UHGV virus genome: UHGV-1360180
Source of the DNA: a virus
DNA: 43,730 nucleotides
Strand: one strand, 5' to 3'
Shown here: one piece after another, positions 26,206-43,730 of the stretch
Layout of the letters: each line of letters begins with the position of its first letter
How positions within the stretch are numbered: position 1 is the stretch's first letter
The notes under the pieces: generated by a model
Told to the model about the DNA's origin: nothing
What the model saw: the letters and a program-made list of their open reading frames with translations, nothing else
Database searches by the model: none
Made by a program: the position numbers and the translations under genes

Positions 26206-26524
26206 GTTTCTCCTTTCTCGATAAGTAAAGCCCCGCCATAAAGCGGGGCGCTAGGCCTTATCATTTAAACATAGAAACGGCGTAATCTCAGTAAACCAGT
26301 TACTTTTTACACAAGCAATAGAGTATGGCCATTCCGAACGCGTCAGCGTAACTACACTCAAGACTTACGTCCCGCTCCGTTACCTGCCCGCGCCGCGGTC
26401 GCTTGTTCATACTTCACAAGCTCAGGTGGAGCTTAGCACATTTTCAGTGAAAAGTCAACTATTCGAATAGTTTATTCTAACATTTACAATTCGGTGGAAT
26501 AACTGGAATAGGTTAATAAATAGT

Positions 26525-26756: not shown

Positions 26757-26757
26757 T

Positions 26758-27964: not shown

Positions 27965-27965
27965 A

Positions 27966-29524: not shown

Positions 29525-29547
29525 CAGTATAATAGGGTACTATTCAC
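29515..29547 (+). promoter_or_regulatory. Conserved 33-bp promoter (TTGCAG-N17-TACTAT variant) with AATAGGGTACTATT palindrome
   Basis: TTGCAGACACCAGTATAATAGGGTACTATTCAC upstream of single-gene island. Confidence 0.5.
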
Positions 29548-29585
29548 GTATAGGTGCTATTGAACGGAAAGAGAGGTTTACTAAA

Positions 29586-29900: not shown

Positions 29901-29920
29901 GGCCCCTTATGGGGCCTTTT
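29901..29920. terminator. Bidirectional terminator
   Basis: GGCCCC-TTAT-GGGGCC-TTTT. Confidence 0.55.
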
Positions 29921-29922
29921 CT

Positions 29923-31392
29923 TTACTGTTGTGGTTGCGCCGACTGCGGAATCTCCCCAGATACCTGAGTAACAGCACCCAACGGCAGCGGTGCATCCTC
30001 AATAGCGTTCTGAATGTCCTCGTCTGTCCAGTCAGTTACGCCCGCCTTGCGTAATGCCGCGTAGTAAGCAGTAGCCGGTAGCAGGCCTGCGTTAATATCA
30101 GCCATCCACTGAGCGCGGTCCTGCGCGGTCATAGGTTGCAGGAAGAACTCCATATTCAGTTTGAACTCAATCTCTGTGCCTTCGCGCAATCCGAGCATCG
30201 CAGCTACCCAGCGCAATGCATCGGTATATGCCATGCTTACATTACGTGCAATTGTCGCCATAACGGACGTGTCAGCGCCGCGTTGCAGGCGGGCAGATTC
30301 AGCGGTGATTTGCTGTGTCGGGGTGATAAGCTGCGCACCAATCTGGATGGCCTGATTCTCTTTATCCAGCATGTTCTGCTTGGCGAGGTTGTTCTCTCCC
30401 GCCTGGACCAGAAACGCATTGCCGCCGTAGCCGATGTTATGGCCAGAACGCGACCCCATGCGCACACCGTGTGGGTTGGCTTCTTTCCACTGCTCCAGGC
30501 TCATATTCTCGCCCGGGGCGATGAACAGAGTGGGCTGGCCCACAACGAAGCTGGACTCCTCATTGTCCGCGCTGTTGCGGAAATGCCCGATATTAAGCTC
30601 AGCCAACGGCAGCAAAGGCGCATCGTCGATGGTTGCGTCGTTGTTGCTCGCCCCGATGAACGTGAACGGGATTTTTCCGCGTAACTGTTCGCCGAGTTCC
30701 GGGAATATTTCGATTACTTCGCCCTGAGCACCACCTTCGGCGTCGAAGCGGTAAATGCGCTGACGGTATCGTCCGTCAATCAAATCAAGAACGCGATACT
30801 GCTCACCGAATTTTGTTTCGAACTCTGCGCCAGGTTCGGAGTATTCCCATACTTCGCGCAACACGACCATTGTCACGCGGTTAACCGAACCGATGCGTGT
30901 CAGCCGCCAGTTGATGATGTTCTCTGCGGTGTAGAATGCGATTACCGGATTTAATAATCCTGCGTTCTGTTCTGCCGCCGTTGCCGCGGCTGTCTCCGGG
31001 GCGTCCACCAGCAACCCGCCACGGCCAACCGAGTCAACCTCCATCAGCGTATCCTGCGCGTGCTGCCACAGCCCGACACCGGAGCCGTCGGCGTTACGTA
31101 ACAGATACTCAAGCTCAGGCGGAATAATCTGCTCGGGGTCTTTACGCATCACTGACCCAACCATCCCCGCCAGGGTGCGCTTGGTGAAGTTGTAGCAGAT
31201 AGCGCCGTTCTCGTATTCTTCCTGGCGCTGTGCCGCGTAGGTCGGGTCCGGTTCGTTCTTCCCGACGTTGCGCAGGTAGCGAATAAGGTCGCCCTCCAGC
31301 GCGTGGCGTACCTTCTGCCATTTATCAAAGTGATGCAGCCATTCCCGGTGTTTTGTCTTAACACCCTGATTCTGACCGTTCATAGTTAACAT
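29923..31392 (-). CDS. Portal protein
   Basis: 489 aa immediately downstream of terminase large subunit. Confidence 0.6.
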   Translation of the reverse strand: MLTMNGQNQGVKTKHREWLHHFDKWQKVRHALEGDLIRYLRNVGKNEPDPTYAAQRQEEYENGAICYNFTKRTLAGMVGSVMRKDPEQIIPPELEYLLRNADGSGVGLWQHAQDTLMEVDSVGRGGLLVDAPETAAATAAEQNAGLLNPVIAFYTAENIINWRLTRIGSVNRVTMVVLREVWEYSEPGAEFETKFGEQYRVLDLIDGRYRQRIYRFDAEGGAQGEVIEIFPELGEQLRGKIPFTFIGASNNDATIDDAPLLPLAELNIGHFRNSADNEESSFVVGQPTLFIAPGENMSLEQWKEANPHGVRMGSRSGHNIGYGGNAFLVQAGENNLAKQNMLDKENQAIQIGAQLITPTQQITAESARLQRGADTSVMATIARNVSMAYTDALRWVAAMLGLREGTEIEFKLNMEFFLQPMTAQDRAQWMADINAGLLPATAYYAALRKAGVTDWTDEDIQNAIEDAPLPLGAVTQVSGEIPQSAQPQQ

Positions 31393-31404
31393 TGAATAAT
31401 CCTC

Positions 31405-32655
31405 TTAAAGTGCGAAAGTCACCGGGATGTTGATTACTGGTTTAACCACCGGCATCTCGTAAACTACAGGATAGCCAAGCGCATCCGCCATATGGTCAAT
31501 GATGCCGTCTTTAGCTGGCTCTCCGTTGTCGTCGTACGCCTGTTGCTCCAGCGTCTTGGCTATCTCCGGGCATAAGTGGTCGTTAACCCACAGCTTACCT
31601 TTTTCCAGCGCGGTATTCACCGCTAAAACACGGTCTTTAACCGGCGGGTTGGCGGATTTAGCCCGCACATCGAATCCGGCCTGCTGAAGTAAGGCGATGT
31701 CAGAGATTGACGCTGAGTTGGTCTTGCGGTTCTTGCCGCTGGCGTCCGGGTACACGACGATGCGGTGCCCTTGTGACTTCCACTTCTCGGTAATAACGCG
31801 CACGGTGTCAGGCGTATCGAACAGGCCTTTCAGTTCTGCTACTGCGTGCCACCCGTCCTGGCGTTGCACATACACGGCGCTGGCGTTTTTCGTAACGTTG
31901 AAGTCCTGCCCTATGTATAACGTGTCGCCAGGTTGTATTGTCTCTTTGCTGCGGTGCTTGAGACGGTCATACGCGTAGTACACGCTGCCGGAAGTCAGGT
32001 TGACGAACTCACCGTTCAGATATGCGTTAATCAACTGCGCCGGGTAAGTCTCGGTCAGCGAGCTGATGTAATCCGGAGGCAGGAATCGCGCGTTCTCGTG
32101 GGTGGAGGCCTGAACCATTGAGTAACTCGGCGTCGGGTTATCTTTGAACTTGGCGAAGACGAACTTAAACCCTTCCGGTGTCGTGGTTACAGAGATGTGG
32201 TTTGTTACGCCAGGAATAACCAGACGCATACGGGCTACGATTTTGTTCCACGCCAGCTCAGCTTTCTCGCGGCTCAGTACGTCCAACTCATCCACGACCG
32301 CAGCGGCGATTTTGAAACCCACAATCGAACCGGGGTTATCCATCGAGCGGCAGATAACAGTTCCTAGCACCGTCTTACCGCGAGTAACCACGACTTCTTT
32401 GTCGCCGGATTTAACCAGCACATCAAGGCCGAGCAGGTTAGCCGCTTCCTCGAATGTCGGGTAGAAGATATCGCGGATAGCCGGGTATGTCGGGCCGAAG
32501 TAGCCGAGGCGTGTACCCGGATGCTTGAGCATGAACGTAAGCAGGTCGAGACAGCCAACGAACGTCTTGCCGCTGCCGAAGCCGCCAACATAGGCTTTGT
32601 ATTTGTTATCACAATTCAGGAATAACGCCTGTGGTGCGGATAGCTGAATACTCAT
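31405..32655 (-). CDS. terL: Terminase large subunit
   Basis: Walker A VGGFGSGKT near N-terminus; 416 aa; upstream of portal. Confidence 0.75.
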   Translation of the reverse strand: MSIQLSAPQALFLNCDNKYKAYVGGFGSGKTFVGCLDLLTFMLKHPGTRLGYFGPTYPAIRDIFYPTFEEAANLLGLDVLVKSGDKEVVVTRGKTVLGTVICRSMDNPGSIVGFKIAAAVVDELDVLSREKAELAWNKIVARMRLVIPGVTNHISVTTTPEGFKFVFAKFKDNPTPSYSMVQASTHENARFLPPDYISSLTETYPAQLINAYLNGEFVNLTSGSVYYAYDRLKHRSKETIQPGDTLYIGQDFNVTKNASAVYVQRQDGWHAVAELKGLFDTPDTVRVITEKWKSQGHRIVVYPDASGKNRKTNSASISDIALLQQAGFDVRAKSANPPVKDRVLAVNTALEKGKLWVNDHLCPEIAKTLEQQAYDDNGEPAKDGIIDHMADALGYPVVYEMPVVKPVINIPVTFAL

Positions 32656-33236
32656 TCCTCTACCTCGCCCATATTCGTTGTTACGATTTTCCCCACAGGC
32701 TCTGCAACACTGAAAATAATCTCAGTCGGTGTTGTTTCTTCGGTGGACTCAACCGGTTTCTCTTTGCTGAGTCCCAGTTTCGCGGCGGCAAACGTAGCGG
32801 AGATACCCGCGGCCCCTGTCTCAGTGAAATATGCCTCTTCCAGCGCCTGTGCGGTTTCATAGGCTTCTGCAAATGCGGGAATCTCGCGCAGCCACAGCTT
32901 AATAATCGGGATAGTGACGCCAATATGTAAGGCGAATCGGGCCAGTGACGGTGGTTTATCCTGAATCAGCGGGCGTTCATCGCCCTTAGACGTAGGCACA
33001 AGTTCCCACGACGTGCGGTCGAAGAACTCGATTAATTCGTCGCAATAGTCCGGGTCCCACAACGCTGCGGAATTGCGGGACGATTGATAAAGGCTCTGTT
33101 TGCCGCGCGGTCGTCTACGGCGACGGTTTGCACTAACAGCCTCTTCATGCGCAGCTTGCACCACCTCTGGCGATGGCTGCTTGAGTTTCAGCTTCATAGA
33201 ATCCCCTTGCATATGCGTCTGACCATCAGAGCGCAT
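32652..33236 (-). CDS. Terminase small subunit (putative)
   Basis: 194 aa overlapping start of terL; basic N-terminal region; true start may be internal Met. Confidence 0.4.
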   Translation of the reverse strand: MRSDGQTHMQGDSMKLKLKQPSPEVVQAAHEEAVSANRRRRRPRGKQSLYQSSRNSAALWDPDYCDELIEFFDRTSWELVPTSKGDERPLIQDKPPSLARFALHIGVTIPIIKLWLREIPAFAEAYETAQALEEAYFTETGAAGISATFAAAKLGLSKEKPVESTEETTPTEIIFSVAEPVGKIVTTNMGEVEE

Positions 33237-33293
33237 CAGACGCGCCCTACGCGTCTAAAGGGATTATATAGGGGGATTAGGCGGGATGTACAG

Positions 33294-33315
33294 AAAAGCC
33301 CTCCGTAGAGGGCTT
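33294..33315 (-). terminator. Rho-independent terminator (minus strand)
   Basis: GCCCTC-CGTA-GAGGGC with T-tract on minus strand; separates early gene block from terminase genes. Confidence 0.4.
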
Positions 33316-33318
33316 GTA

Positions 33319-33552
33319 TTAGTTATATAGGCCGTGTCGTAGTGCTATTTTACCGTCGCCGCCGTAGTGGTTGTTAGCTACAGCGATAGCCCAGGCGTTA
33401 GGGATGATTAGTAGTCTCATTTTAAGAATCTCAACATGGCGTCCGCGATACCAGACGTCGCTAACCCGAAAAACATAGGCCACCAGATATATCTGGGTAG
33501 ATTGGTAAATGTTTTTGGGTTGACCCAGAAAGCCATTAAAAACGCGAACCAA
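33319..33552 (-). CDS. Hypothetical protein
   Basis: ORF track; hydrophobic C-terminal segment. Confidence 0.3.
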   Translation of the reverse strand: MVRVFNGFLGQPKNIYQSTQIYLVAYVFRVSDVWYRGRHVEILKMRLLIIPNAWAIAVANNHYGGDGKIALRHGLYN

Positions 33553-33592
33553 AACACCTTGAGGCCGATGTTGTTAAGTAATTCTAAGATAA

Positions 33593-33829
33593 TCATCCCC
33601 CGCTCTCCTCTTTAGCAATACGTTGCTCTGTTTTAGTGATACCACGGCGCGTGAATAACACCGGGCTTGTCTTAACGTGCGTCATCAGACGGTTGTTATA
33701 AATTACGTGGCGCTCGCAATCAACGTCTTTGCTGTACTTCGCAATCGTCATTTCGTTGATGCCGGTTTGTCGGCATGCCTCCGCCATCGTGCCGAATTCT
33801 TTAATCAGGTTCGGAATGCTGGTAATCAT
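33593..33829 (-). CDS. Hypothetical protein, possible small DNA-binding protein
   Basis: 78 aa; segment AEACRQTGINEMTIAKY resembles HTH. Confidence 0.3.
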   Translation of the reverse strand: MITSIPNLIKEFGTMAEACRQTGINEMTIAKYSKDVDCERHVIYNNRLMTHVKTSPVLFTRRGITKTEQRIAKEESGG

Positions 33830-34047
33830 TCTGGTGCAATCTCCGATACACTAAGAATAATAACTTCGGCGCCGTTCGGGAGAGATTTTGCGATGTCCTG
33901 TTCAATTTCCCTTAGTTCGCTGTAGGTGAATTTATCACTGCCGGTGAGTACTTGCTCAGTATTCCCAAACCCACTACGCCCGGTATTGTCCGCCCAGTTG
34001 AAACCAATTAAGAAGTGTTTCGTCATAAGAAATTCCTCGTTGTCCAC
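33826..34047 (-). CDS. Hypothetical protein
   Basis: ORF track; coupled start/stop with neighbours. Confidence 0.3.
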   Translation of the reverse strand: MDNEEFLMTKHFLIGFNWADNTGRSGFGNTEQVLTGSDKFTYSELREIEQDIAKSLPNGAEVIILSVSEIAPE

Positions 34048-34179
34048 ATCGCATTCGGGTATTTGTTATCACGGTCTTGAACCACAGCAATCATGTTACC
34101 TCGTTGCACGAGGCAGAAGTGCCGTTGCTGCTCTCCGTTGTAGCGACGCCAGATTGCTTCTTCGATTGCTGCGTTGATG

Positions 34180-34440
34180 TCACTGAACATGCCCAACACC
34201 CCACATAAATATCATCCCAACCGCTACACCAATCAAAATTGATACTGGCGTATCAATCCAAGCCCTCTGGCTGCGCAAAGTCTCGGCGTTCTCCAGAATG
34301 TCGCGAACACGCGTTAAGTGTTCAATCTCCAGTTTCGCAGCGGTAAGTTCCTGGGTCGCTTTTGAATATTTACCGTTAATTCTGTCGAGAGCCTTCTTAA
34401 GGTCTTTATTGTTCTTCTTGAGTTGCTCAATCTGTTCCAT
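34180..34440 (-). CDS. Hypothetical membrane-anchored coiled-coil protein
   Basis: 86 aa; coiled-coil N-terminus, C-terminal hydrophobic segment VSILIGVAVGMIFMWGV. Confidence 0.35.
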   Translation of the reverse strand: MEQIEQLKKNNKDLKKALDRINGKYSKATQELTAAKLEIEHLTRVRDILENAETLRSQRAWIDTPVSILIGVAVGMIFMWGVGHVQ

Positions 34441-34442
34441 AA

Positions 34443-34637
34443 CTACCCCACTATCTCATCACCGAGCCACGCCGTTTCTCGTATATCGTCGACCACACAA
34501 GCGGCGTGCTCACGGCTAATTGCAAAAATGTAGAAGCTGAACTTCTTCCCGTCGGCGTCGATGTGGTTAACCGAGTAAGGTTTCCACAGGACACCATCAA
34601 TTACTACTGGTTTAGGCGACTCCATACGCTTTACCAC
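34443..34637 (-). CDS. Hypothetical protein
   Basis: 64 aa ORF, coupled to neighbours. Confidence 0.3.
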   Translation of the reverse strand: MVKRMESPKPVVIDGVLWKPYSVNHIDADGKKFSFYIFAISREHAACVVDDIRETAWLGDEIVG

Positions 34638-34869
34638 ATTTTAAGCATGTGGCTCGATGTACCCCATCAACTAAATGCAGGCGGTAATCATGCTCGCAGG
34701 CGTTCATCTTTTCCTCTTCTCCTCTCAACAACATGAGAAGAACCTTAAATGCGGCTAACTGGTACTCACCGTTAATCGACAGTTGCCCGCCTAACGTCTG
34801 TTTCTCTGACTCAAGCACCAGAATACGGCGCTCAAGTGATGCGATTGTGATTTTAGGCATCAGTGTCAC
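34612..34869 (-). CDS. Hypothetical protein with C-terminal Cys pairs
   Basis: 85 aa; CEHD...CLKCG pattern. Confidence 0.3.
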   Translation of the reverse strand: MTLMPKITIASLERRILVLESEKQTLGGQLSINGEYQLAAFKVLLMLLRGEEEKMNACEHDYRLHLVDGVHRATCLKCGKAYGVA

Positions 34870-35177
34870 CTTTGTTCAGGTTGAAGCGGTTAATCAGTTC
34901 GCGGCGGCGTTCCATAAGTTTATCTACCTGCCGTAAGTGGTGCTCAATGTGGGAGTCAATCCACGCGATTTCAGATTCACCGGTTGCGGATTCGACGCTA
35001 AGTTTCTCGTATTCGTTATTAGTCATTCTTTACGCTCTCCCCACATGCGATTGAGATACTTGTTCTTGTCCGGCCCCGGGAAACTGTTACGTTTCATCAG
35101 TTCCTCGCGTGTCGGGAACGGGGTGTGACTGACTTTACGGCCTACTCGTAATGGTTGGCTCACTGGACCTTGTTCGC

Positions 35178-35327
35178 TCATTTCTTCTCTCCTGCATAAG
35201 CTGCTTTCAGTGTCTGCATCGCGGCGAACCAGAACGCATCCGCGGGAATGCTGTTGCTCAGGTTACTAACTGCGATGCGTGCCATCAGTTGTGCGTCTTT
35301 GAATGCTTCGATATCTGTGATTTTCAT
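35178..35327 (-). CDS. Small hypothetical protein (49 aa)
   Basis: Manual translation MKITDIEAFKDAQLMARIAV...; first ORF after minus-strand promoter at 35360-35395. Confidence 0.25.
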   Translation of the reverse strand: MKITDIEAFKDAQLMARIAVSNLSNSIPADAFWFAAMQTLKAAYAGEKK

Positions 35328-35359
35328 TTTCTCTACTCCGTTCTCGTTGTTGATGGAGT

Positions 35360-35395
35360 AAATATAATAGGGTCTAGGGTAATAGTCAACTAGTC
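35360..35395 (-). promoter_or_regulatory. Promoter-like TTGACT-N17-TATATT (minus strand)
   Basis: Reverse complement reads TTGACTATTACCCTAGACCCTATTATATT; contains ACCCTATTAT related to the conserved promoter core. Confidence 0.3.
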
Positions 35396-35410
35396 ATTGC
35401 AGAAAATAAA

Positions 35411-35443
35411 TAAAAAAAAATCCCGGCTGTGCCAGGGCCGGGA
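35411..35443 (-). terminator. Rho-independent terminator after lysis cassette
   Basis: CCCGGC-9 nt loop-GCCGGG followed on minus strand by nine T. Confidence 0.5.
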
Positions 35444-35508
35444 TAAAACTGGAGAGCAGAGGGATGGAGCAGGAGGTGATTTAAGTATCGTCGGATTAGT
35501 ATTATGTG

Positions 35509-35997
35509 TCAACCTTTCACCGCGCGCCCGATAGCCTCAGCCTCCCGCCACGGTTTACCGTCGAACAGCGCCAGACGACCGGCTGTACGGCGGCGCAGGC
35601 CGAGTAACGGTTTGCCGTTCTGATTGATGAACAGCGCCAGCTTAGCCCGCAGTGTCGCAATATCGCCAGAACGCAGCGCCTTACCGGTTCCGGTAGTAGC
35701 CGCAATCACGCCAGCACCAGCGTTATATACCAGGTCGCACACTGCATCGAACTGAGCCTGTGTAAGCGAATGGTGTGCGGCTGCGTCAACCGCAGCTACG
35801 GCCTTAGCCATATCGCGATTCAGCAACAGGAGGCCTTGCCCAGGCGTAATGGTCTTGCCTGGTGTTACATCCGGCCCGTAGTGACCGTAGCCTATGGTAA
35901 GGTACTTCTCGTTCGGCGTAGCGCGATACGCAGTTCCGCGGAACCCCTCGAACGCGGCGGTAAAATGCAATCCATTATCTGAAATATTTCGAGACAC
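35509..35997 (-). CDS. Endolysin, lysozyme (GH24-like)
   Basis: ORF track 35509..36048 (TTG); likely GTG at 35997 after GGAGG. Motif FEGFRGTAYRATPNEKYLTIGYGH typical of phage lysozymes. Confidence 0.7.
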   Translation of the reverse strand: MSRNISDNGLHFTAAFEGFRGTAYRATPNEKYLTIGYGHYGPDVTPGKTITPGQGLLLLNRDMAKAVAAVDAAAHHSLTQAQFDAVCDLVYNAGAGVIAATTGTGKALRSGDIATLRAKLALFINQNGKPLLGLRRRTAGRLALFDGKPWREAEAIGRAVKG

Positions 35998-36247
35998 GCT
36001 TATATCCTCCGTATGACAACCACGCCTGACGAATCTGGCGCAGCGCAACTAATGTGATTAATGTCTCAGGCAACGTCGGTGACATGCTGCCCTGTAACAG
36101 GTGGATACACCCGGCGGCGCAGACAATAGCGGTCAGGATATAGAGCACACGCCCGAACAGCCCATCGTCAACGCTCGGATGATATACATTAAACAGAGAT
36201 GTGCCCCCGATTGCCAGCATACCGCCGAACCAGAATAACTCATTCAT
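35975..36247 (-). CDS. Holin-like membrane protein
   Basis: 90 aa, two hydrophobic helices, basic C-terminus; overlaps endolysin start. Confidence 0.5.
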   Translation of the reverse strand: MNELFWFGGMLAIGGTSLFNVYHPSVDDGLFGRVLYILTAIVCAAGCIHLLQGSMSPTLPETLITLVALRQIRQAWLSYGGYKRVSKYFR

Positions 36248-36548
36248 CTGTGCCTCCTCGACGTGCGATGTATTCTCCGGCGACGATACCGGAGAGACGG
36301 GAATAGATGGGCATCCAGAGAATTGCGATGATGAATCCGAGGCCAGCTATCTCACGCTCCCCGGTAATTCCAAACCATTGCGCTGCAAGAGGTGCACCAA
36401 ATACGGCGCAGGTGAAGCCGGTTGCAATAAAGCAGAATCCGTCGATAGGGCCGGAAATAACGGACTTATGTTGCCTTAGTCCGATTACCCCACCGGCGAG
36501 TGCGGCAGCCAGAAGCCACCCCGTCACTGTTTCAGTAAATTTATCCAA
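36240..36548 (-). CDS. Holin-like membrane protein
   Basis: 102 aa, three hydrophobic segments, charged C-terminus; immediately upstream of second holin-like gene and lysozyme. Confidence 0.5.
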   Translation of the reverse strand: MDKFTETVTGWLLAAALAGGVIGLRQHKSVISGPIDGFCFIATGFTCAVFGAPLAAQWFGITGEREIAGLGFIIAILWMPIYSRLSGIVAGEYIARRGGTDE

Positions 36549-36623
36549 GATGAATCCTCCAGGTGCGTATTAAGTATGCAGTAACTGGAGGATACCACGG
36601 GTAGGAATTATCTTAATAACGGT

Positions 36624-36956
36624 TTATTTATGTCTCCAGATGTATTGTCGTCTCTGCGGCTTCGTCGGAATATCATCGTATCCGAGCGATTTCCAGTAAT
36701 TAAATAACCGATTAGCGATAGCCGCGCGTTCCTGTGTTTTAAACTCACCAAGATTCACGGCCTTACCGTTCTGGAATCCACAGGCGCGGACCGCTTTGCG
36801 TCTGGCCTGAATCTCAGGGTACAGCGCGTTACGGCGGCGCTTGTATATCCGGGTGTTCGCTCTCGGTGAAAGCGGCGCAAGGCCGCTTCGTTTCAGGATG
36901 TCAGTTGCAAGGCTCATGTTCCACAATCTCCGCGAGTTGTATACCGTAATCCTCAA
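36624..36956 (-). CDS. Hypothetical basic protein
   Basis: 110 aa ORF. Confidence 0.3.
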   Translation of the reverse strand: MRITVYNSRRLWNMSLATDILKRSGLAPLSPRANTRIYKRRRNALYPEIQARRKAVRACGFQNGKAVNLGEFKTQERAAIANRLFNYWKSLGYDDIPTKPQRRQYIWRHK

Positions 36957-36998
36957 GCTGAATGATATCTGCTTTCATGATGTTGCCCAGTTGGACAA

Positions 36999-37274
36999 TC
37001 ATTTTTCCAATTTTAGGCCTGCGTTGTTAATTTGCTCGCGATAGTGGTCATCGACATACGGGCCGTGGTCGTTTGGGCAAGGACACGCTTTAATTTCAAT
37101 TTCTTCGCGTGATGCTCGCCACGCCAGAAACGTATAAACCTCTAATTCATCTCTCTCCTCATCGGAATAATATGGCCTGCCAAAATTATCACTAAACCAC
37201 TTTTCAAACTGCTCTCTACTCGTCATCTTCACTCCACCCCTTCCACATGTGTAACTGACCCACAGTTCGCGCAC
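36999..37274 (-). CDS. Hypothetical protein
   Basis: ORF track; real start probably internal Met (MTSREQFEKWF). Confidence 0.3.
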   Translation of the reverse strand: MRELWVSYTCGRGGVKMTSREQFEKWFSDNFGRPYYSDEERDELEVYTFLAWRASREEIEIKACPCPNDHGPYVDDHYREQINNAGLKLEK

Positions 37275-37483
37275 TCGACGTAATCCGGGAACTGGTCCTT
37301 GTATTTCTGTAACTCTTTTTGCTGTTCATCAATAATCCAGTCGCGATACGCCAACTCCGCGGCGATAGATGATTTACTGTTCAGACCCTCCTCTGTCATA
37401 GCCATAACATGTCTTGAATAATAATTGTTAGTCATGTCTAGCATTTCTAAATCGCGCTCTGCGTATAATTTAACCATAATCAT
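37229..37483 (-). CDS. Hypothetical protein
   Basis: 84 aa; C-terminal CANCG. Confidence 0.3.
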   Translation of the reverse strand: MIMVKLYAERDLEMLDMTNNYYSRHVMAMTEEGLNSKSSIAAELAYRDWIIDEQQKELQKYKDQFPDYVECANCGSVTHVEGVE

Positions 37484-37710
37484 TTCTCCTGTTTACCAAG
37501 TCGCTTGGGTGCGCAGATAGCGCGTACCTCCGAATCGTTGGGCTTGTCGCCCTGGAACAGGAAGTGCGCGTTCTCTGCGGCGCGTGCCGCTGACTGGCAC
37601 GCCTCCATCGAATAAAACGTTTCTGATGCTGCGAGTTGCATATGGCCTGCGGTCAGTACCCAGATAAATAAGATGCTGGTCATTTCTGAACGTCCCCGCA
37701 ATGCAGGCAC
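37480..37710 (-). CDS. Small secreted protein (putative)
   Basis: Signal-peptide-like MTSILFIWVLTAGHMQLAAS after internal Met. Confidence 0.3.
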   Translation of the reverse strand: MPALRGRSEMTSILFIWVLTAGHMQLAASETFYSMEACQSAARAAENAHFLFQGDKPNDSEVRAICAPKRLGKQEK

Positions 37711-38114
37711 CGTCTAGCACATATAGTTTCGTGATAGATATAATCGTGCTGGCATTGAGACCAATCCGTATCTTCCTTACGGCAACCAGATTGCTCCGGC
37801 GGTACAGGAGTCTTGGTACACCGACAATTTACCGTTGCCGCGGGCACATGTCCACCCACCACGTAACGCTGACCCCCATTGACGTACCCGCCTTTGCGTA
37901 TAAGTTTGTACGCCTCCACATCACCAGTAGCTTGGACCAGCGCCAGATGCAACTCCTTAATCTGCGCCGACGCGTCACGTAACTGATTCTTAAGTGACTG
38001 CACCTCGCGCTCCAGGTCTTCGCACTGGTTGCTATTTACCTGCTGCCGTAGTTGGTCAATCAAGTACTCGAATACTTCGTTTTTGTTACTCATCAGCTTC
38101 GCCCCTTTTCTCAT
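37680..38114 (-). CDS. Coiled-coil protein with Cys-rich C-terminus
   Basis: 144 aa; CRC...C...C..CLHCG cluster. Confidence 0.35.
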   Translation of the reverse strand: MRKGAKLMSNKNEVFEYLIDQLRQQVNSNQCEDLEREVQSLKNQLRDASAQIKELHLALVQATGDVEAYKLIRKGGYVNGGQRYVVGGHVPAATVNCRCTKTPVPPEQSGCRKEDTDWSQCQHDYIYHETICARRCLHCGDVQK

Positions 38115-38251
38115 CTACCCCGACTAGCAGCGATTTAGTGTCGCCGTTGCGCACCGAAGTGCTACCCAGTATTTCGTAAGCGTCTACCAGTTCGCCTAAA
38201 GTCCAGCTACCGTACCAGCCCATCTTCTGTCTCTCCCCTCATCTGTGTATA

Positions 38252-38283
38252 TGAATAGTAGCCTATTCTATCTTAGTGTGCAA
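38252..38283 (-). promoter_or_regulatory. Promoter of the TTGCAC-N17-TACTAT class (variant) with AATAGTAGCCTATT palindrome
   Basis: Reverse complement CTTGCACACTAAGATAGAATAGGCTACTATTCA. Confidence 0.4.
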
Positions 38284-38598
38284 GTAAATTTTATTGGTGT
38301 TTTAGGGATAAGCGTTCGCTACGAATCCAGTAGTACCTCGGGCGTCTCGCCCACTGACGCCATCGCATAACACGGTACTTGTTGCCGTCTGACGCAACGA
38401 TAAGCCCGAATCGCTTTTCTCCGTTTCTACCGGTCCAGGTTACGATGTCATTCAGTTTCATTGTTGCATCTCTCGCAATAGTTGCTTCGATTGTTGCGTT
38501 TGGTGAAATAGAACAGAAATGAGAAAAATGATACGCTGCTACACAGCAGCGTAAGTCACTCAGTAAAATAGTAACCTATTGACCTGTTACACCACCTG

Positions 38599-38796
38599 TT
38601 ATACCAGCGATGGCGGCTCAGGTAACGGCATCCAGTGGGTTACATCGTCAATATCGATGTTTGAGTTACGCGGCGCCCAACAATCCCAGAAACCGTCGCA
38701 GTCCCACCACATAACCTCGACGTTATCTCCATCTGAAACAAGAACATCTTCAAAATCACCAGGCATACGCTCACTACACTTAACCCACTCGCTCAT
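38599..38796 (-). CDS. DUF551-like phage protein
   Basis: WVKCSERMP ... HWMPLPEPP pattern recalled from DUF551-family proteins. Confidence 0.45.
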   Translation of the reverse strand: MSEWVKCSERMPGDFEDVLVSDGDNVEVMWWDCDGFWDCWAPRNSNIDIDDVTHWMPLPEPPSLV

Positions 38797-38939
38797 ATCT
38801 CACCTCGTATTCATCGCAGTTCGAACACCAGCTTTCCACGCCCGCCACGCGAGACGCGTCTTAACGTTCAGGTACTCTTTCTTTGAACCCTTGTTAACCG
38901 GCAACCCCTCGACGACGGCCCACCGTTCGAATGCTTCTC

Positions 38940-39134
38940 TCATAGCTCCACCACGTGGTGTTTAAGGAAACTGATTAACTTGTACTCTCGGTACTGCGCT
39001 ACCGCCTTAGCGTGAGCCAAATTACACGACTTCCAAGGGGTGTATTTCGCCTTTTCCCAGCATTCAACACCAAACTCGGCAGCATGCAGACTGCCAATCA
39101 GACGGCGTAATCGGAATTCGTTATATGGACTCAT
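38940..39134 (-). CDS. Hypothetical protein
   Basis: 64 aa ORF. Confidence 0.3.
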   Translation of the reverse strand: MSPYNEFRLRRLIGSLHAAEFGVECWEKAKYTPWKSCNLAHAKAVAQYREYKLISFLKHHVVEL

Positions 39135-39194
39135 ACCAACCCCCGCAACGCGTGCGCCACATAAACGGCGCTGACAATTAAAATGAACGGGTAA

Positions 39195-39383
39195 TTATTC
39201 ACGGCAACCTCCCTCAGAGTCGTCGGCACGAGCATCATGATTCGATGCCGTTCTTGATTTAAATTCTGCGTTGAAACCCAATTTTGCTAACGCAACACAA
39301 TGGTCAAACGCCTCGCCTCTGCTTCTTGTTGAATAACTGAATCTACCACCTACATATACGTCGTAAATTAATTCACCCATCAC
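39195..39383 (-). CDS. Hypothetical protein
   Basis: 62 aa ORF. Confidence 0.3.
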   Translation of the reverse strand: MMGELIYDVYVGGRFSYSTRSRGEAFDHCVALAKLGFNAEFKSRTASNHDARADDSEGGCRE

Positions 39384-39580
39384 TTCACCCCTTTGAATTT
39401 AAAATTGTTGCCGATGAGTTTCATTTCATACTCTCGGTAATACGCCGCTGAACTTAACCCATGCTCCCTGAGTAAGCTAACAACATAAGAACTTCGGTAC
39501 ACTGCCGATTTCTTTTCAATAATACCGAAGCTACCATATATAGTTTTCACTAACTGACCCTTCTTAAACATAACACCCAC
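39380..39580 (-). CDS. Hypothetical protein, first gene of leftward early operon
   Basis: 66 aa; GAGGA RBS; directly downstream of minus-strand conserved promoter. Confidence 0.35.
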   Translation of the reverse strand: MGVMFKKGQLVKTIYGSFGIIEKKSAVYRSSYVVSLLREHGLSSAAYYREYEMKLIGNNFKFKGVK

Positions 39581-39601
39581 TCCTCTGTCTCGTTTCGATA
39601 A

Positions 39602-39634
39602 GTGAATAGTATCCTATTATGTTGGGGTGTGCAA
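39602..39634 (-). promoter_or_regulatory. Conserved 33-bp promoter (TTGCAC-N17-TACTAT), leftward early promoter
   Basis: Reverse complement TTGCACACCCCAACATAATAGGATACTATTCAC. Confidence 0.5.
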
Positions 39635-39882
39635 GAGAATAGTTACGTTGCCGTTGTGATTCTTTGGGGAAGGTTGCGCCTTTATTCTTATTACTTGGTA
39701 ACTAAAGGGCAGGCCTTAAGCCTGCCCAATAATCGTTACATTTTTACGGTTGCGAATCTACGGCACATTAAGAAAATCATATACTTAAGAGATATGCTGC
39801 CGATGAGAATAGAGCTTGCCCATGGCAACCGGAGATACTTAGGAAGGAAAGTTACGATAATTCTCATGTTCAGTAAGCCTGT

Positions 39883-39914
39883 GTTTAACCCTTTGCTTGT
39901 CGCACGGGTTAAAC
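39883..39914. other. Stem-loop with 9-bp stem in divergent intergenic region
   Basis: GTTTAACCC-14 nt-GGGTTAAAC; second hairpin GGGCAGGC-CTTAA-GCCTGCCC at 39707-39727. Confidence 0.4.
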
Positions 39915-40004
39915 ATTCTTACAAGGTGAACAGGAATCAAAGTAACTAAGATATAGAAGCACCTTAAACGAAGATTTTCTTAATGTCAATAGGTGCGATT
40001 ATGT

Positions 40005-40033
40005 TTGATTTCCCATTATTCGCAATGTATACT
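40005..40033 (+). promoter_or_regulatory. Sigma70-like promoter TTGATT-N17-TATACT (rightward)
   Basis: Upstream of HTH gene; spacing 17. Confidence 0.4.
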
Positions 40034-40065
40034 TGGTTTCGTTAACTGATAATGAGGGTTTGAGA

Positions 40066-40236
40066 ATGACACAGAATGAGGTAGCGGAGCGTATAGGAGT
40101 TACTCGTCGCACGCTGAATAACTGGTTAAAGAGCGGGAAGTTCCCGGATTGCTGTATTCGCATTATGGGTCGCCGTCAGCCAGGTACGTTTGACCCGGAG
40201 AAGGTGGAAGCGTGGATTAAGGAGAACGTGAAATGA
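40066..40236 (+). CDS. Helix-turn-helix DNA-binding protein (excisionase/AlpA-like fold)
   Basis: ORF track 40033..40236 (TTG); likely ATG at 40066 after GAGGG. EVAERIGVTRRTLNNWLKSGKFP HTH signature. Confidence 0.5.
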   Translation: MTQNEVAERIGVTRRTLNNWLKSGKFPDCCIRIMGRRQPGTFDPEKVEAWIKENVK

Positions 40237-40466
40237 CCGAGTTCCAGTCACGCGTATTTACGGCGGTCGTTTCGTTAACACGTAAAAAAGGGTCGTGCAG
40301 CGTTATCGACTTGCGCCGCAGTTATTTTAAGTACTATAGTTCTGCCATTATTGAAGGGTCATTGAGGGTACTGGTTAAATCTGGTGCCGTGAAAAATGTT
40401 GGTGGGAAATATAGTGCCGTTGCCGAAGTTCGCGGAATGACAGCCACTTTAGAAGACCTGGAATAA
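40233..40466 (+). CDS. Hypothetical protein
   Basis: 77 aa, ATGA-coupled. Confidence 0.4.
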   Translation: MTEFQSRVFTAVVSLTRKKGSCSVIDLRRSYFKYYSSAIIEGSLRVLVKSGAVKNVGGKYSAVAEVRGMTATLEDLE

Positions 40467-40524
40467 AAGAAAGCCCCGACGCGGTGAACGCCGAGGCCAA
40501 ATTACTTGCTGAAGGAAATACAAC

Positions 40525-42792
40525 ATGTCCGATGTAATTTTATCCTACTCGTGGTCCCGTCGCAACGCGCGGGCAGAGAAAAAGGATATAAACGTCAGAA
40601 CCACTCACACGGCAACACTGGACGACCTGAAAGAGCTACTCCAGCCGCTTGATGCTGTCCGTGATGGGGTTAACCCGAAGACCGCGCCGGGATATATCAC
40701 CGCCGCGTGCGACTCGACACACAGCACCGTAAAAGACCCGGAAACAGGTGACTTTAAGCATGCGCGTAAAGGCTTCTTCTATCGCTGTGACGCGTCTGTA
40801 ACTAAATCGTCACTGGCGTATCTTGACTTCGACAGCGCAACGCCGGAAGAGTACCAGGAAGCAGTGCGCCTGGTTAAGCGAGGCCGTAAAGCCATGTGCG
40901 TTTACACCACGGCATCCCATACCGATGAGTCTCCACGCTTTCGCGTCGTCATGCCGCTGGCCCGCCCGGTCGAAGGCGGTGACATCATCCGCGTACGTCA
41001 CGGGTTGCTGGAGCACTTCTTCAAAGGCATGGGCGCGGACCGCAGCGGGTTTACTCTGTCCCAGCCGATGTACCTGCCACCGGTCGGCTCTCAGGTTATC
41101 TGGTCGCGCCGAAACGACCTGATTGACCCTGACGAGTTACTGGAAGGCGTACCGGATTACGAGGTGAGCAGCGCATCTGACTACCAGATACCGGAAGAAC
41201 TGCGCACCGCGTTTACGGACGCGTTCGAAGCACTGGCGTTCGAGTATGGTGGCGTCATGACGCCCCGCGGTCTGAAGATGCCAGCTACGCCAGAACACGC
41301 AGAGAACTACAGCGACCCGACGCCGCGTCCGGACGACTTCCTGCTATGCTTCCCACGTGAAGGGTACGAAGCGCCTAACGTAACCATGATTCACGACACC
41401 GACATTACGGCAACCGAAGGCATGTCACCGAAAGAGGTGTGGAAGTATGCGTGCGATGCGACTGGGCTGCCGTTCAGTGAAGTCGCTGAGGCAATTGGCT
41501 GGGGCGCGCGTGAATCAGTTTCATGCAGCCTCGACGACCTAGAAGACGACGAGGACCCAGAGGAGGACGAGCTACCGGAACCGGTAAAGGCTGATTTCGT
41601 CGTCGAAGGGTATGTGCCATCAGATTGTATCTGGGATATCGTCGGGGAATCTGGCACGTACAAATCGTTTTATACACTGGGGATGATGTACCTTAGCGCC
41701 GCAGGATACCGGTTTGCGGGAGCTGATACGCAGCGTTGCCACCATTTTTATATCGACGGTGAGGGCGGCGCAGCTACCCGCACACGTATAGATGCACTCG
41801 CGGCTAAATATGGCGAGGAAGGTAAAGATTATGTACATGTTATCGACATGGGCGAAGTCGGAAAACTGAAAAACCTGATTAAGTTAATGCGTGAAACTGC
41901 GGGTGACGAGCCAATTGGCATGGTCGCATTCGACACCCTTAACCAGACGCTGGCCCTGACGATTGATAAGTTCGACGAGAACAGTTCATCGACGGCAATC
42001 GGCATGGGTAAAGTCATTGCCATCCTGAAAGAAGTACGTGATGCGACTAAAGCTGCGGTAGGCGTTGTCCACCATACGCCGAAGGGTGGAAAGAAGGCCC
42101 GTGGCAGTGGGGCGCTGTATGCGGGCGTCGACGTGGAGCTGACAATCGAACGCGCTACCGACCGCCAGATAAACGTATACCACTCTAAATTTAAGCACGG
42201 GCCTCAACAGAAGACGGTTGGTATGGTGTTGGAGTCAGTACAGTTCCGTGAAGCCCCGCCGCCGAAAGAGTATCGCGCGGTTGAGTTCCTGGGTAGCACA
42301 GAGGAATACGGCACAATCGTAAACCTCGACCTGCCTGAACCGCACAAGGCGCTTGTACTGATGCCGTGGGGCTTCGAGCCGTTCAAAACTGACGAGGAGA
42401 AAGAGCGGGAAGAAGGGCTGACAAAGGAAGGTAAAGAAAACGTACGTAAAACCGTAGAGAACGCCGTCAACAGTTCGGAAGCCACGATACTGGCAGCGTT
42501 TGAACTGGCAGAAGGAACCTACAACGGCAATGAAGGTATCACGGTGGCCGCAGCGAATAAGCTCGCTCAGTCAGACCCCAACGCAAAGGCGTTTAACTCC
42601 AAAGAAGCCATAGAACGCGGGAAGATTAAGAAAATGGTTGAGGCCGGGTATCTTGTTCCGGGGACTGACGAAAACAATCAGATAATACCTGGCCGCTACC
42701 GGCTTAACACCAGGATAACGGATAACAAGATTCCGAAGACAATATACGAACCGAATGAAATGCTGGTGGTGACAGCGGAGGATTTGGAATAG
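40525..42792 (+). CDS. Primase-helicase (primase-polymerase-like N-domain fused to RecA-like/RepA-like ATPase)
   Basis: 755 aa; DxD-type acidic motif LAYLDFDS and HTDESPRFRVVMPL; C-terminal Walker A-like GESGTYKS, Walker B MVAFDTL, HHTPKGG. Confidence 0.65.
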   Translation: MSDVILSYSWSRRNARAEKKDINVRTTHTATLDDLKELLQPLDAVRDGVNPKTAPGYITAACDSTHSTVKDPETGDFKHARKGFFYRCDASVTKSSLAYLDFDSATPEEYQEAVRLVKRGRKAMCVYTTASHTDESPRFRVVMPLARPVEGGDIIRVRHGLLEHFFKGMGADRSGFTLSQPMYLPPVGSQVIWSRRNDLIDPDELLEGVPDYEVSSASDYQIPEELRTAFTDAFEALAFEYGGVMTPRGLKMPATPEHAENYSDPTPRPDDFLLCFPREGYEAPNVTMIHDTDITATEGMSPKEVWKYACDATGLPFSEVAEAIGWGARESVSCSLDDLEDDEDPEEDELPEPVKADFVVEGYVPSDCIWDIVGESGTYKSFYTLGMMYLSAAGYRFAGADTQRCHHFYIDGEGGAATRTRIDALAAKYGEEGKDYVHVIDMGEVGKLKNLIKLMRETAGDEPIGMVAFDTLNQTLALTIDKFDENSSSTAIGMGKVIAILKEVRDATKAAVGVVHHTPKGGKKARGSGALYAGVDVELTIERATDRQINVYHSKFKHGPQQKTVGMVLESVQFREAPPPKEYRAVEFLGSTEEYGTIVNLDLPEPHKALVLMPWGFEPFKTDEEKEREEGLTKEGKENVRKTVENAVNSSEATILAAFELAEGTYNGNEGITVAAANKLAQSDPNAKAFNSKEAIERGKIKKMVEAGYLVPGTDENNQIIPGRYRLNTRITDNKIPKTIYEPNEMLVVTAEDLE

Positions 42793-42803
42793 GTAAAAAG
42801 AAA

Positions 42804-42818
42804 GGGGCGTTAAGCCCC
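42804..42818. terminator. Terminator hairpin shared by convergent genes
   Basis: GGGGC-GTTAA-GCCCC preceded by A-run, overlapping stop of repressor gene. Confidence 0.4.
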
Positions 42819-43025
42819 TTCACCGAACGCCAACCACTTGGCGTCTACTTGCAGCACTTCCGCCAGTTTAAACAGCGTCGCCGGGCGGACGTCCTGAGTT
42901 ACCCCGAGCGCAAGCTGGTTAATCGCGCCCTGGGAAACGCCGGCCAGGACCGCAAGACGGCGCTGGGAGATGCCTAGTTCTTTACGGCGTTGTTCTACAC
43001 GGATGCCTAGTTCGGATGGTTGCAT
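42810..43025 (-). CDS. XRE-family HTH transcriptional regulator (Cro/CI-like)
   Basis: 71 aa; LGISQRRLAVLAGVSQGAINQLALG HTH; AAGGAG RBS. Confidence 0.7.
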   Translation of the reverse strand: MQPSELGIRVEQRRKELGISQRRLAVLAGVSQGAINQLALGVTQDVRPATLFKLAEVLQVDAKWLAFGEGA

Positions 43026-43055
43026 GTCGATTACTCCTTAGTCAGTTGATATGTG

Positions 43056-43118
43056 AATAGTACCATATTAATTATTTTAGAAAAGCCCATTGACAAGTGA
43101 ATAGTTCGCTATTATAGT
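43056..43118. promoter_or_regulatory. Divergent control region with two operator-like palindromes and rightward TTGACA-N17-TATAGT promoter
   Basis: AATAGTACCATATT 43056-43069 next to repressor gene start; AATAGTTCGCTATT 43100-43113 within spacer of promoter TTGACA 43090-43095 / TATAGT 43113-43118. Confidence 0.45.
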
Positions 43119-43149
43119 TAGCCCATACCAAACGAGAGGAGAGAAACAA

Positions 43150-43677
43150 ATGTTAGAGAAATTCTTAGTATTACTGGAACGTTTCGTAGTTGCGCATGAA
43201 CTGATTGCTGCGAATAGCGTGAAACAAGCATCATCGAAAGAACTGGACACAAAACTAAATATCGCCATTGCCAAGCACGAGGTGGCTAAAGAGAAACTTG
43301 AACTCGAACATACATTAGAATTACAAAAATCCAGCATTAAAAAAGAAATCCCGGTAGAAGGTGAAGACGTCGTTGACACTAAACCAGAAGAAGAGAAGCC
43401 TAAACGTAAGCCACGTAAAGCTAAAGTAGAGGAGCCGACGCCAGAGCCGGAAGAAGAGAAAGAAGAAGTCGATTACCAGTCTCTGCGTGACCAGATTCAG
43501 GCTATTGATGATGCGATTAACGAAGGTCCGAGCGATGCAGCGTGCGATGATTCTGATGAACTGCTGGAAGAGTTCACCGGTAAGAAAATGAAGATTGCCG
43601 CGATTAAAGACGAAGACCTGGCTGAATACCTGGAACGCCTGACGGCAATCAAGAACAAGTACTTCGAAGAAGAATAA
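43150..43677 (+). CDS. Highly acidic protein, function unknown
   Basis: 175 aa; GAGAGGAGAG RBS; Glu/Asp-rich C-terminal half, KPKRKPRKAK basic patch. Confidence 0.45.
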   Translation: MLEKFLVLLERFVVAHELIAANSVKQASSKELDTKLNIAIAKHEVAKEKLELEHTLELQKSSIKKEIPVEGEDVVDTKPEEEKPKRKPRKAKVEEPTPEPEEEKEEVDYQSLRDQIQAIDDAINEGPSDAACDDSDELLEEFTGKKMKIAAIKDEDLAEYLERLTAIKNKYFEEE

Positions 43678-43685
43678 CTATCTCG

Positions 43686-43707
43686 CGGCCTTCTGGCCGC
43701 TTTAACT
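43686..43707 (+). terminator. Rho-independent terminator
   Basis: GCGGCC-TTCT-GGCCGC followed by TTTAACT. Confidence 0.4.
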
Positions 43708-43730
43708 GAGGGTCGGAATTATGATTTACC

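Follow-up and report, generated by a model that had tools for sequence, protein, structure and literature searches.

A predicted leftward non-coding RNA unit between the divergent early promoters of a Kagunavirus-like phage

The window analyzed here, the whole 43,730-nucleotide virus genome UHGV-1360180, belongs to a Kagunavirus-like E. coli siphophage of the subfamily Guernseyvirinae, and our subject is the 370-bp intergenic region (39635-40004) that separates its divergent early operons. The region is flanked on the left by the minus-strand gene that opens the leftward operon (ATG at 39571) and on the right by the first gene of the rightward operon (40066-40236, plus strand), which encodes in order a 56-aa helix-turn-helix (HTH) protein, a 77-aa protein (orf77) and a 755-aa helicase-primase with an AAA_25 domain. 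In the fully annotated phage Bas73 the leftward direction runs from small early genes through holins and endolysin to the terminase, portal, head and tail genes. An initial annotation had described the region as AT-rich, with two strong hairpins, and had proposed it as a candidate replication origin or regulatory RNA locus. Our results suggest that it is a self-contained leftward non-coding transcription unit, which is probably transcribed leftward and acts as RNA. Its transcription, the strand used and its function are predicted here; the elements themselves, their conservation and covariation and the absence of a coding signal are read directly from the alignments.

Over 39300-40300 the genome shares 93-94% identity with phages Bas73 and NTEC3, and this stretch has matches in 449 phage records, mainly from Salmonella Jerseyviruses and Escherichia Kagunaviruses. 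We gathered 35 distinct homologous versions of the region from phages in GenBank and contigs in IMG/VR, all of the kind present in the window, which we call type A; replacement modules found at the same locus are called type B (the Golestan type) and type C (the Bas75 type). No plasmid or chromosomal homologues of the region were found in PLSDB or in complete E. coli genomes, and a search with a degenerate 26-mer returned one chance match in 596 Gb of genomes and otherwise just nine phage-like metagenome contigs. A scan of the collection with the invariant 14-mer AATGTCAATAGGTG gave matches that were mostly due to chance and was uninformative. The elements on which the argument rests are as follows.

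39961..39989, minus strand: P(-), a predicted promoter (TTGACA at 39989..39984, N17, TAAGGT at 39966..39961) with a predicted start at ~39954
39850..39947, minus strand: an extended imperfect hairpin of 98 nt, with an invariant stem P1 (AGUUAC/GUAACU) and covarying stems P2-P4
39831..39849, minus strand: a CU-rich linker, UUCCUUCCUAAGUAUCUCC, predicted to be single-stranded and conserved in both genera
39796..39830, minus strand: H2, a second hairpin (GGUUGCC..GGCAGC, enclosing a UGGG/UCUCA stem), located in the block where conservation is highest
39728..39795, minus strand: the 3' spacer of the predicted RNA, ~70 nt, moderately conserved in the alignments and the conservation profile
39700..39727, minus strand: hairpin 1 with its tail (GGGCAGGC-loop-GCCTGCCC, tail UUUAGUU), the terminator-like 3' end of the predicted RNA
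39599..39634, minus strand: PL, the leftward early promoter (TTGCAC at 39634..39629, N17, TACTAT at 39611..39606), carrying an AATAG..CTATT palindrome
40005..40033, plus strand: PR, the rightward promoter (TTGATT-N17-TATACT), which serves the HTH gene, orf77 and the helicase-primase operon
40066..40236, plus strand: the gene that opens the rightward operon, encoding the 56-aa winged-helix protein (HTH_17/excisionase type)
39641..39646 (plus), 39698-39703 (minus), 39850-39855 (plus) and 39942-39947 (minus): four conserved copies of the hexamer AGTTAC

Both promoters that bound the region in the initial annotation are present: PL, placed there at 39602-39634, can be read directly as TTGCAC-N17-TACTAT on the minus strand, and PR stands at 40005-40033 as TTGATT-N17-TATACT. 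PR, with a predicted start at ~40040, is nearly invariant among the aligned relatives and is annotated as a predicted promoter in phage PVP-SE2. Back-to-back with it, with 15 bp between the two -35 hexamers, lies P(-). The pattern TTGACA-N17-TAAGNT recurs in 35/35 type-A versions, with a spacing of 17 in 34 of them and of 18 in one, and it is found in metagenome variants too. The -35 hexamer is invariant, the -10 hexamer reads TAAGGT, TAAGTT or TAAGCT (so that T1, A2 and T6 are kept), and roughly half of the spacer positions differ between Kagunavirus and Jerseyvirus. By our own calculation, ~0.01 chance occurrences of an exact TTGACA followed by TAnnnT at 16-18 nt would be expected in the region. 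Constant spacing around a diverged spacer is the signature of a promoter, and the candidate RNA thus appears to be headed by a predicted sigma-70-type promoter of its own on the minus strand.

Downstream of P(-), the region folds well beyond chance, in keeping with the two strong hairpins first noted there: the stretch 39698-39957 has fold z-scores of -5.4 (minus strand) and -4.1 (plus strand), and 0/200 shuffled sequences fold as well. The hairpin originally placed at 39883-39914 is present, with perfect 10-nt arms (39882-39891 and 39906-39915), and proves to be merely the apical stem of the 98-nt hairpin at 39850-39947. This apical stem-loop (39882-39915) is hypervariable, occurring in at least seven unrelated sequence versions of which every one forms a stable hairpin, and the internal loop CACCUU is conserved. 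Among the inner pairs, one is C-G in 18 sequences and U-A in 17, another (read on the minus strand) is A-U in 18, G-U in 14 and G-C in 3, and a further one is G-C in 25, A-U in 7 and U-A in 3; a compensatory insertion converts GUUCA/UGAAC into GUUUCA/UGAAAC. The last two AGTTAC copies form P1 and never vary. In a MAFFT alignment fitted to no structure, 90.2% of cells pair, against 34-48% when the partners are slid; MAFFT tends to misplace the 3' arm between Kagunavirus and Jerseyvirus. Double changes occur at nine pairs and in 62 cells, giving a covariation score that was reached by 0/500 shuffles. Both of the hairpins first noted are therefore kept as structures in relatives, and the region carries a conserved secondary structure supported by covariation, as is expected of a small RNA (sRNA) gene.

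Hairpin 1, described originally as an 8-bp GC-rich stem at 39707-39727, is present with 8-9 bp. The statement that neither hairpin is followed by a clear T-tract holds for the plus strand only; on the minus strand hairpin 1 reads GGGCAGGCTTAAGGCCTGCCC and is followed by TTTAGTT, the form of a Rho-independent terminator. Among the terminator-like hairpins of 24000-43730 it ranks second (9 pairs, 7 of them G-C), and a terminator is called at the same site in Jerseyvirus and Bas75. Its minus strand folds better in 30/33 versions, the U-tail exists on the minus strand only, and a compensatory change from C-G to U-A is seen in 6 sequences. The hairpin lies ~230 nt downstream of P(-) and ends 66 nt upstream of the PL -35. 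The spacer that precedes it is replaced in BEU35-type phages and deleted in ER12-type Jerseyviruses. Around this left half the Jerseyviruses differ in length: jersey (L003 965-1500; also L006 and L060) has ~900 bp without annotated genes at this locus, of which an extra ~540 nt sits between hairpin 1 and PL and includes a diverged duplicate of the left half (GTGCCTTTATTCT, then a different GC hairpin); the ER12-type phages resemble a deletion between these duplicates.

The region shows no sign of encoding a protein. The open reading frame (ORF) first noted at 39602..39949 does exist, with 115 aa; it is not conserved and is without codon periodicity, its variable sites being spread over the three codon phases as 44/42/41, against 1/2/31 in the neighboring HTH gene. 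No ORF is common to all 35 versions, and the commonest plus-strand ORF shifts frame between the genera and crosses a segment that is replaced by unrelated sequence. The absence of a conserved in-frame ORF, together with the lack of codon periodicity, rules out a coding gene and identifies the region as non-coding, which is again what an sRNA gene requires. In several relatives 'hypothetical protein' ORFs that differ in frame and extent are annotated here (L001 3251-3571, L002 1806-2021, L014 1503-1853 and L004 1704-1850); those in Bas73, NTEC3, CR01 and Kenya-K9 are probably spurious. The right half of the region (39776-39995) nevertheless retains 70-73% identity between Kagunavirus and Jerseyvirus, with blocks above 90%, compared with 0.49-0.70 at the third codon positions of the adjacent genes and 57-59% protein identity over the first 330 residues of the helicase-primase. 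Judged by these identities, the intergenic region is under purifying selection. Its sequence belongs to no RNA family that we searched: no tRNA, tmRNA or known RNA family was found, Rfam (release 15) gave no gathering-score matches in the window and only noise at E = 0.9-1.6 in 39500-40150, and nothing was returned at E <= 0.1 in five relatives spanning all module types.

Consensus folding favors H2 on the minus strand, with a structure conservation index of 0.79 and z = -2.8; on the plus strand the values are 0.47 and z = -0.5, and several of its G.U pairs would turn into A.C mismatches. In the long hairpin, the Jerseyvirus minus-strand fold reproduces the Kagunavirus architecture by means of two G.U pairs (A.C on the other strand), and the plus-strand minimum-energy fold in most of the Jerseyvirus versions examined is a different structure with which 8-11 pairs are shared. 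We consider the minus strand to be moderately favored as the transcribed strand.

Several features suggest that a protein acts at this locus. The 56-aa product of the first rightward gene matches Pfam HTH_17 (E = 2e-7) and the PHROG 'excisionase and transcriptional regulator'; it is 86-89% identical between Kagunavirus and Jerseyvirus and 86% identical between type-A and type-B modules, and the winged helices of Xis, MerR and AlpA have one shared fold. It is a candidate regulator of the divergent promoters. The hexamer AGTTAC has 41 copies in the genome, where 21 are expected, and 4 of them lie within 310 bp here. At the base of the long hairpin (39936-39952) we also noticed a 12-mer, ATCTWAGTWACT, which appears twice, inverted, in the Golestan-type module (L011 1673-1684 and 1864-1875); it has a chance expectation of 0.06, is absent from the Bas75 and Jersey loci, and may be a protein-binding site. 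Taken together, the invariant AGTTAC arms, the enrichment of the hexamer and the 12-mer shared by types A and B point to a candidate DNA- or RNA-binding protein. Some Kagunavirus contigs (L016 1596-1739; also L025) carry an extra 46-aa ORF (MVTLTEEQLEKLL...) between PR and the HTH gene, overlapping the HTH start as ATGA. A perfect 14-nt inverted repeat (ACATTAAGAAAATC / GATTTTCTTAATGT) occupies 39765-39778 and 39973-39986, with its arms 194 nt apart and one of them inside the P(-) spacer; other Kagunaviruses show the repeat with 1-3 mismatches, Jerseyvirus lacks it, and it would lie within the RNA only if the start used the upstream minus-strand site 40025..39998.

The locus belongs to a wider pattern, in which two further sets of elements are involved.

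39599-39634, 26525-26560, 17297-17330, ~29529-29560 and ~38237-38267: near-identical sigma-70-type copies of the PL family
26206-26594, minus strand: a second leftward non-coding unit, with a promoter TTGACT-N17-TAAGCT at ~26459..26431

PL belongs to a repeated family of ~36-nt promoters with about five copies in the genome, of sequence TTGCACACCCCAAyATAATAGGGTACTATTCAC, in which an AATAG..CTATT palindrome is embedded over the -10; the palindrome suggests one shared repressor. These phages are not known to carry an RNA polymerase gene. A paper on phage fBC-Eco01 lists the PL-family motif as seven 'phage promoters' or 'phage RNA polymerase promoters' (PMC9825357). Where the type-A region is exchanged, its layout persists. 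In the Bas75 type the left half including hairpin 1 is kept and the right half is swapped for unrelated sequence bearing a minus-strand TTGAAA-N18-TATAAT (11/12 matches, called by the promoter scan) and a 17-bp hairpin, with a fold z-score of -5.6. In the Golestan type nearly the whole region is replaced, by a module with a minus-strand TTGACT-N17-TAAGCT and a terminator-like hairpin, TGGTGCCTTCGGCACCA followed by CGTTCGTTTC, ahead of PL; a (GAGT)n tetranucleotide run of ~7 units (L011 1620-1646) lies inside its predicted leftward transcript. Three unrelated sequences thus appear to follow one design, in which a leftward promoter stands back-to-back with PR, a gene-free stretch of 200-290 nt follows, and a hairpin comes directly ahead of PL. 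The second leftward unit, at 26 kb (26459..26230), has a promoter of the class to which P(-) belongs, a ~195-nt leader and then a strong terminator, GCCCCGCTTTATGGCGGGGC with TTTACTT, at 26249..26230, which lies 25 nt ahead of the ribosome-binding site of an Rz-like spanin gene, with head genes after it. The Golestan-type promoter and its first ~60 transcribed nt are nearly identical to window 26385-26470. Between Escherichia and Salmonella phages the 350-bp non-coding stretch at 26 kb keeps 92-97% identity, which far exceeds that of the coding genes; its leader is not significantly structured (z = -1.3). A perfect 16-nt palindrome, AACTATTCGAATAGTT, stands immediately upstream of this unit's -35.

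Two other control elements were seen near the rightward operon. Between orf77 and the helicase-primase gene, at 40472-40498, there is a strong minus-strand terminator-like hairpin (11 pairs, tail TTCTTTTATT), antisense to the rightward operon, that would halt leftward transcription arriving from the right. A second divergent control region, at 43026-43149, separates a Cro/DicA-like HTH gene (42810..43025, minus strand) from the next rightward gene; it holds two direct repeats with a GTGAATAGT motif (43046-43070 and 43090-43114), and a near-consensus plus-strand promoter, TTGACA-N17-TATAGT, lies at 43090-43118.

How might the leftward unit work? Host sigma-70 RNA polymerase would start at P(-), at ~39954, and transcribe in order the 98-nt hairpin (39947..39850), the CU-rich linker, H2 (39830..39796), the ~70 nt spacer, and hairpin 1 with UUUAGUU (39727..39700). 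At hairpin 1 the polymerase would mostly stop, yielding a ~255-nt RNA (~39954 to 39700) that ends 66 nt before the PL -35. Acting in cis, such a terminated leader would be a checkpoint on transcription entering the leftward operon, where early genes are followed by lysis genes and these by packaging and head genes; lambda PR'-tR' (6S RNA) and HK022 put work by this kind of logic. A polymerase that had produced the structured RNA would pass hairpin 1 and the terminators beyond it, perhaps with help from the adjacent small winged-helix protein, and the remaining polymerases would leave the short RNA. There is a precedent in AlpA, a small DNA-binding protein that lets polymerase bypass leader terminators (PMC7969949). 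We put this cis mechanism, which draws on analogy, forward tentatively. In its favor, the unit points into the leftward operon in all module types, and that direction in Bas73 bears the lysis, terminase, portal and head genes. In ER12-type Jerseyviruses, which lack hairpin 1, the RNA core would continue toward PL, which is also consistent with a role in cis. The promoter-leader-terminator arrangement ahead of late genes at 26 kb has the layout of lambda PR'-tR', and on this ground we favor the cis role by a small margin.

A number of observations weigh against the picture of an RNA unit headed by P(-) and controlling the operon in cis. The P(-) -10 is weak, and because it fits the consensus at only 3/6 positions P(-) was not called by the promoter scan; alternatively, the invariant TGTCAA might serve PR, as an upstream element or as a site bound by a protein. 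An AlpA- or Q-type site would be expected in the P(-) spacer, which is not conserved between the genera. By sequence the 56-aa HTH protein is not of the AlpA family, since searches gave no Phage_AlpA hit in Pfam at E <= 10 and matched neither an NCBIfam AlpA model nor an AlpA chain in the PDB. Some replacements of hairpin 1, in ER12-type Jerseyviruses, are without a U-tract and do not have the form of a terminator. As to strand, folding energy is ambiguous for the long hairpin, with 22 versions favoring minus and 13 plus; G.U outnumber A.C cells by 196 to 36 on the minus strand (36 to 20 in the long hairpin alone), a count that is biased because the structure was derived from the minus-strand fold. 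No Rfam family, antitermination RNAs included, matches the region, and our literature search gave no publication on it. PL, moreover, sits between the hairpin-1 terminator and the first leftward gene, so that read-through is not needed for early leftward expression, and this makes a trans-acting sRNA almost as likely.

Such a stand-alone sRNA (~39954 to 39700) would pair through its CU-rich linker or internal loop with purine-rich ribosome-binding sites of host or phage mRNAs, or would bind or titrate a protein. All of the evidence for a transcription unit applies to it equally, and the long 5' hairpin and 3' terminator would confer stability. The strong terminator followed by a separate promoter suits an RNA that has no use for read-through; the linker is conserved and unpaired, and looks like an anti-Shine-Dalgarno sequence; the hypervariable apical loop recalls specificity-determining loops; and the whole module is swapped for unrelated ones, as an accessory gene might be. 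An RNAduplex scan of the linker against both strands of the whole phage genome, however, gave nothing beyond the background tail, the U-tail UUUAGUU is short for an Hfq-type sRNA, and in every module type the unit keeps one orientation and position with respect to the leftward operon, a constancy that a gene acting in trans would not need. We regard this explanation as possible but somewhat doubtful. An unlikely one is that the region acts as DNA, a regulatory spacer with operators for small HTH proteins at PL and PR, in which the hairpins are by-products of inverted half-sites or insulating terminators and no functional RNA is made. That would account for P1 arms that never vary while the other stems covary, for the clustering and genome-wide excess of AGTTAC, for a perfect GTAACTTGAAGTTAC palindrome at the same place in Jerseyvirus, for GAATAG motifs that recur at promoters, and for the occurrence of ATCTWAGTWACT in otherwise unrelated type-A and type-B modules whose HTH proteins are 86% identical, although this motif is missing from the Bas75 and Jersey modules. 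It leaves unexplained the compensatory indel, the covariation and the seven or more stable unrelated tips, as well as the strand-specific G.U pattern of H2 and the constant-spacing promoter, and a hairpin with so many bulges and a 14-nt loop is unlikely to extrude as a cruciform from duplex DNA. Very improbable, in our view, is a structured leader or RNA read from the plus strand, such as a leader ahead of the replication operon. This strand too folds well (z = -4.1) and has purine-rich, Shine-Dalgarno-like runs, and ORFs are annotated on it in some relatives; yet it has no conserved promoter upstream of the structures, hairpin 1 is without a T-tract and H2 poorly supported on this strand, the Jerseyvirus plus-strand fold is not conserved, and neither are the ORFs in frame.

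The proposal of a replication origin, unlike that of an RNA locus, finds little support. The region adjoins the replication module, whose helicase domain is of the AAA_25/RepA type, and the palindrome in Kagunavirus can fold on either strand, so that helicase-primase loading through single-strand hairpins (as at the ssi sites of RSF1010 oriV), or an R-loop or primer from the leftward promoter (as at T4 oriF/oriG, in T7 or with ColE1 RNA II), can be envisaged; an origin of the transcription-activated type would need no initiator-specific iterons. The AT-richness that had been noted is real in that GC is lower than in the flanks, but it is mild, at 0.33-0.44 compared with about 0.44-0.57 in 1-kb windows genome-wide; the lowest value (0.33) falls at 39950-40049, and the stretch 39900-40049, at 0.33-0.36, also carries two promoters. 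The cumulative GC skew does reach a minimum and change sign at ~39600, but it does so where gene orientation switches, and it therefore offers no evidence for an origin. An iteron search of 39400-40300 found no tandem or multi-copy direct repeats, just short two-copy matches. The P4 ori octamer, which we take to be TGTTCACC, is the reverse complement of GGTGAACA, and this sequence is found at 39925-39932; it is there in single copy and becomes GGTGAAACA in Jerseyvirus, and we treat it as coincidence.

The genetics of the neighboring helicase-primase (40525-42792; L011 2540-3064) bear on the same question. It occurs in two forms that have only residues ~315-755 in common (77-79% identity); in the N-terminal primase region the alignment between them covers just 75 residues, at 25% identity. 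The Golestan-type module is joined to a type-A helicase-primase N-terminus (94-97% identity) in L031, L043, L053-55 and L057, and is also paired with a helicase-primase whose N-terminus aligns at only 25% over 75 residues. Type-A, B and C modules are exchanged independently of the helicase-primase, and the type-A module can be replaced with the helicase-primase unchanged; by these alignments the helicase-primase N-terminus has undergone a domain swap, and its recombination is independent of the intergenic module upstream. This uncoupling argues against a cognate origin recognized by the helicase-primase. Module type is linked to the adjoining HTH and orf77 alleles, and the forms of origin that remain are those recognized by the linked HTH or orf77 proteins, or transcription-activated ones. 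In Jerseyvirus the conserved architecture is lost from the plus-strand fold, H2 and the terminator are specific to one strand, and we consider an origin of any of these kinds quite improbable. The iteron-type origins (lambda ori, P4 ori/crr and the ori of SaPI/PICI islands) and RSF1010 oriV with ssiA/ssiB resemble the region in having a primase-helicase neighbor, lower GC and hairpin-forming inverted repeats; they differ from it in that here there are no iterons, the module is uncoupled from the helicase-primase, and the architecture is kept on one strand in Jerseyvirus. The suggestion of a small regulatory RNA locus, by contrast, gains indirect backing from the conserved promoter, the covarying structure, the terminator-like hairpin, the absence of coding and the purifying selection.

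The predicted leftward RNA unit matters beyond this genome. Jerseyvirus and Kagunavirus phages are isolated very often and are used in Salmonella and E. coli biocontrol and in synthetic biology, and in >350 deposited genomes the conserved structured-RNA unit between the early promoters is now left blank or labeled 'hypothetical protein', which could be corrected. It offers a concrete element for the study of how the early/late switch is controlled and, if the interpretation is true, a new phage RNA family for Rfam. The evidence against an origin here means that the replication origin of the group is still to be located. On a broader and rather speculative view, which we ourselves find doubtful, the Guernseyvirinae would control entry into a ~30-kb leftward lysis and structural unit by exchangeable cassettes of promoter, structured RNA and terminator, put-like or winged-helix-dependent antitermination switches outside the described families. 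The present unit, its two unrelated replacements and the near-invariant 26.2-26.5 kb unit would, on that same doubtful view, all be instances.

Among known systems, lambda oop and P22 sar are short phage antisense RNAs that pair with an overlapping coding transcript. The predicted RNA resembles them as a short leftward transcript of the host polymerase with its own promoter and terminator beside replication genes, but no conserved gene and no predicted plus-strand transcript overlaps it at 39954..39700, the PR start being at ~40040. HK022 putL and putR are cis-acting structured RNAs of ~70 nt with two stem-loop domains. The likeness to put is one of layout only, namely a non-coding structured RNA between a promoter and the first terminators, in the orientation of the operon, where the strand matters; the core here is ~150 nt, our searches gave no sequence or Rfam similarity, and antitermination would in this case be hypothetical. 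AlpA of Pseudomonas aeruginosa is a small winged-helix DNA-binding protein encoded next to a target promoter, with a leader terminator before lysis-type genes (PMC7969949, PMC9371919). Our locus shares with it a 56-aa HTH_17 protein encoded divergently beside P(-), with the -35s 15 bp apart, and a terminator in the leader; since the protein is not of the AlpA family and the element between -35 and -10 is not conserved between the genera, we take this as analogy rather than membership. Lambda PR'-tR' makes a terminated leader, the 194-nt '6S' RNA (StxS in Stx phages), and its control needs Q bound between the -35 and -10 and a promoter-proximal pause. The unit described here matches it in having a promoter, a non-coding leader of ~200-250 nt and a strong intrinsic terminator, in pointing into a lysis and structural operon, and in leaving a short RNA by default. 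Unlike in lambda, no Q homologue or Q-binding site was identified here and PL intervenes between the terminator and the first gene; the leader here also has a structure that is conserved and covaries, and no such requirement is known for the lambda leader. We would describe the element as a new unit specific to this phage family, a non-coding RNA or a leader.

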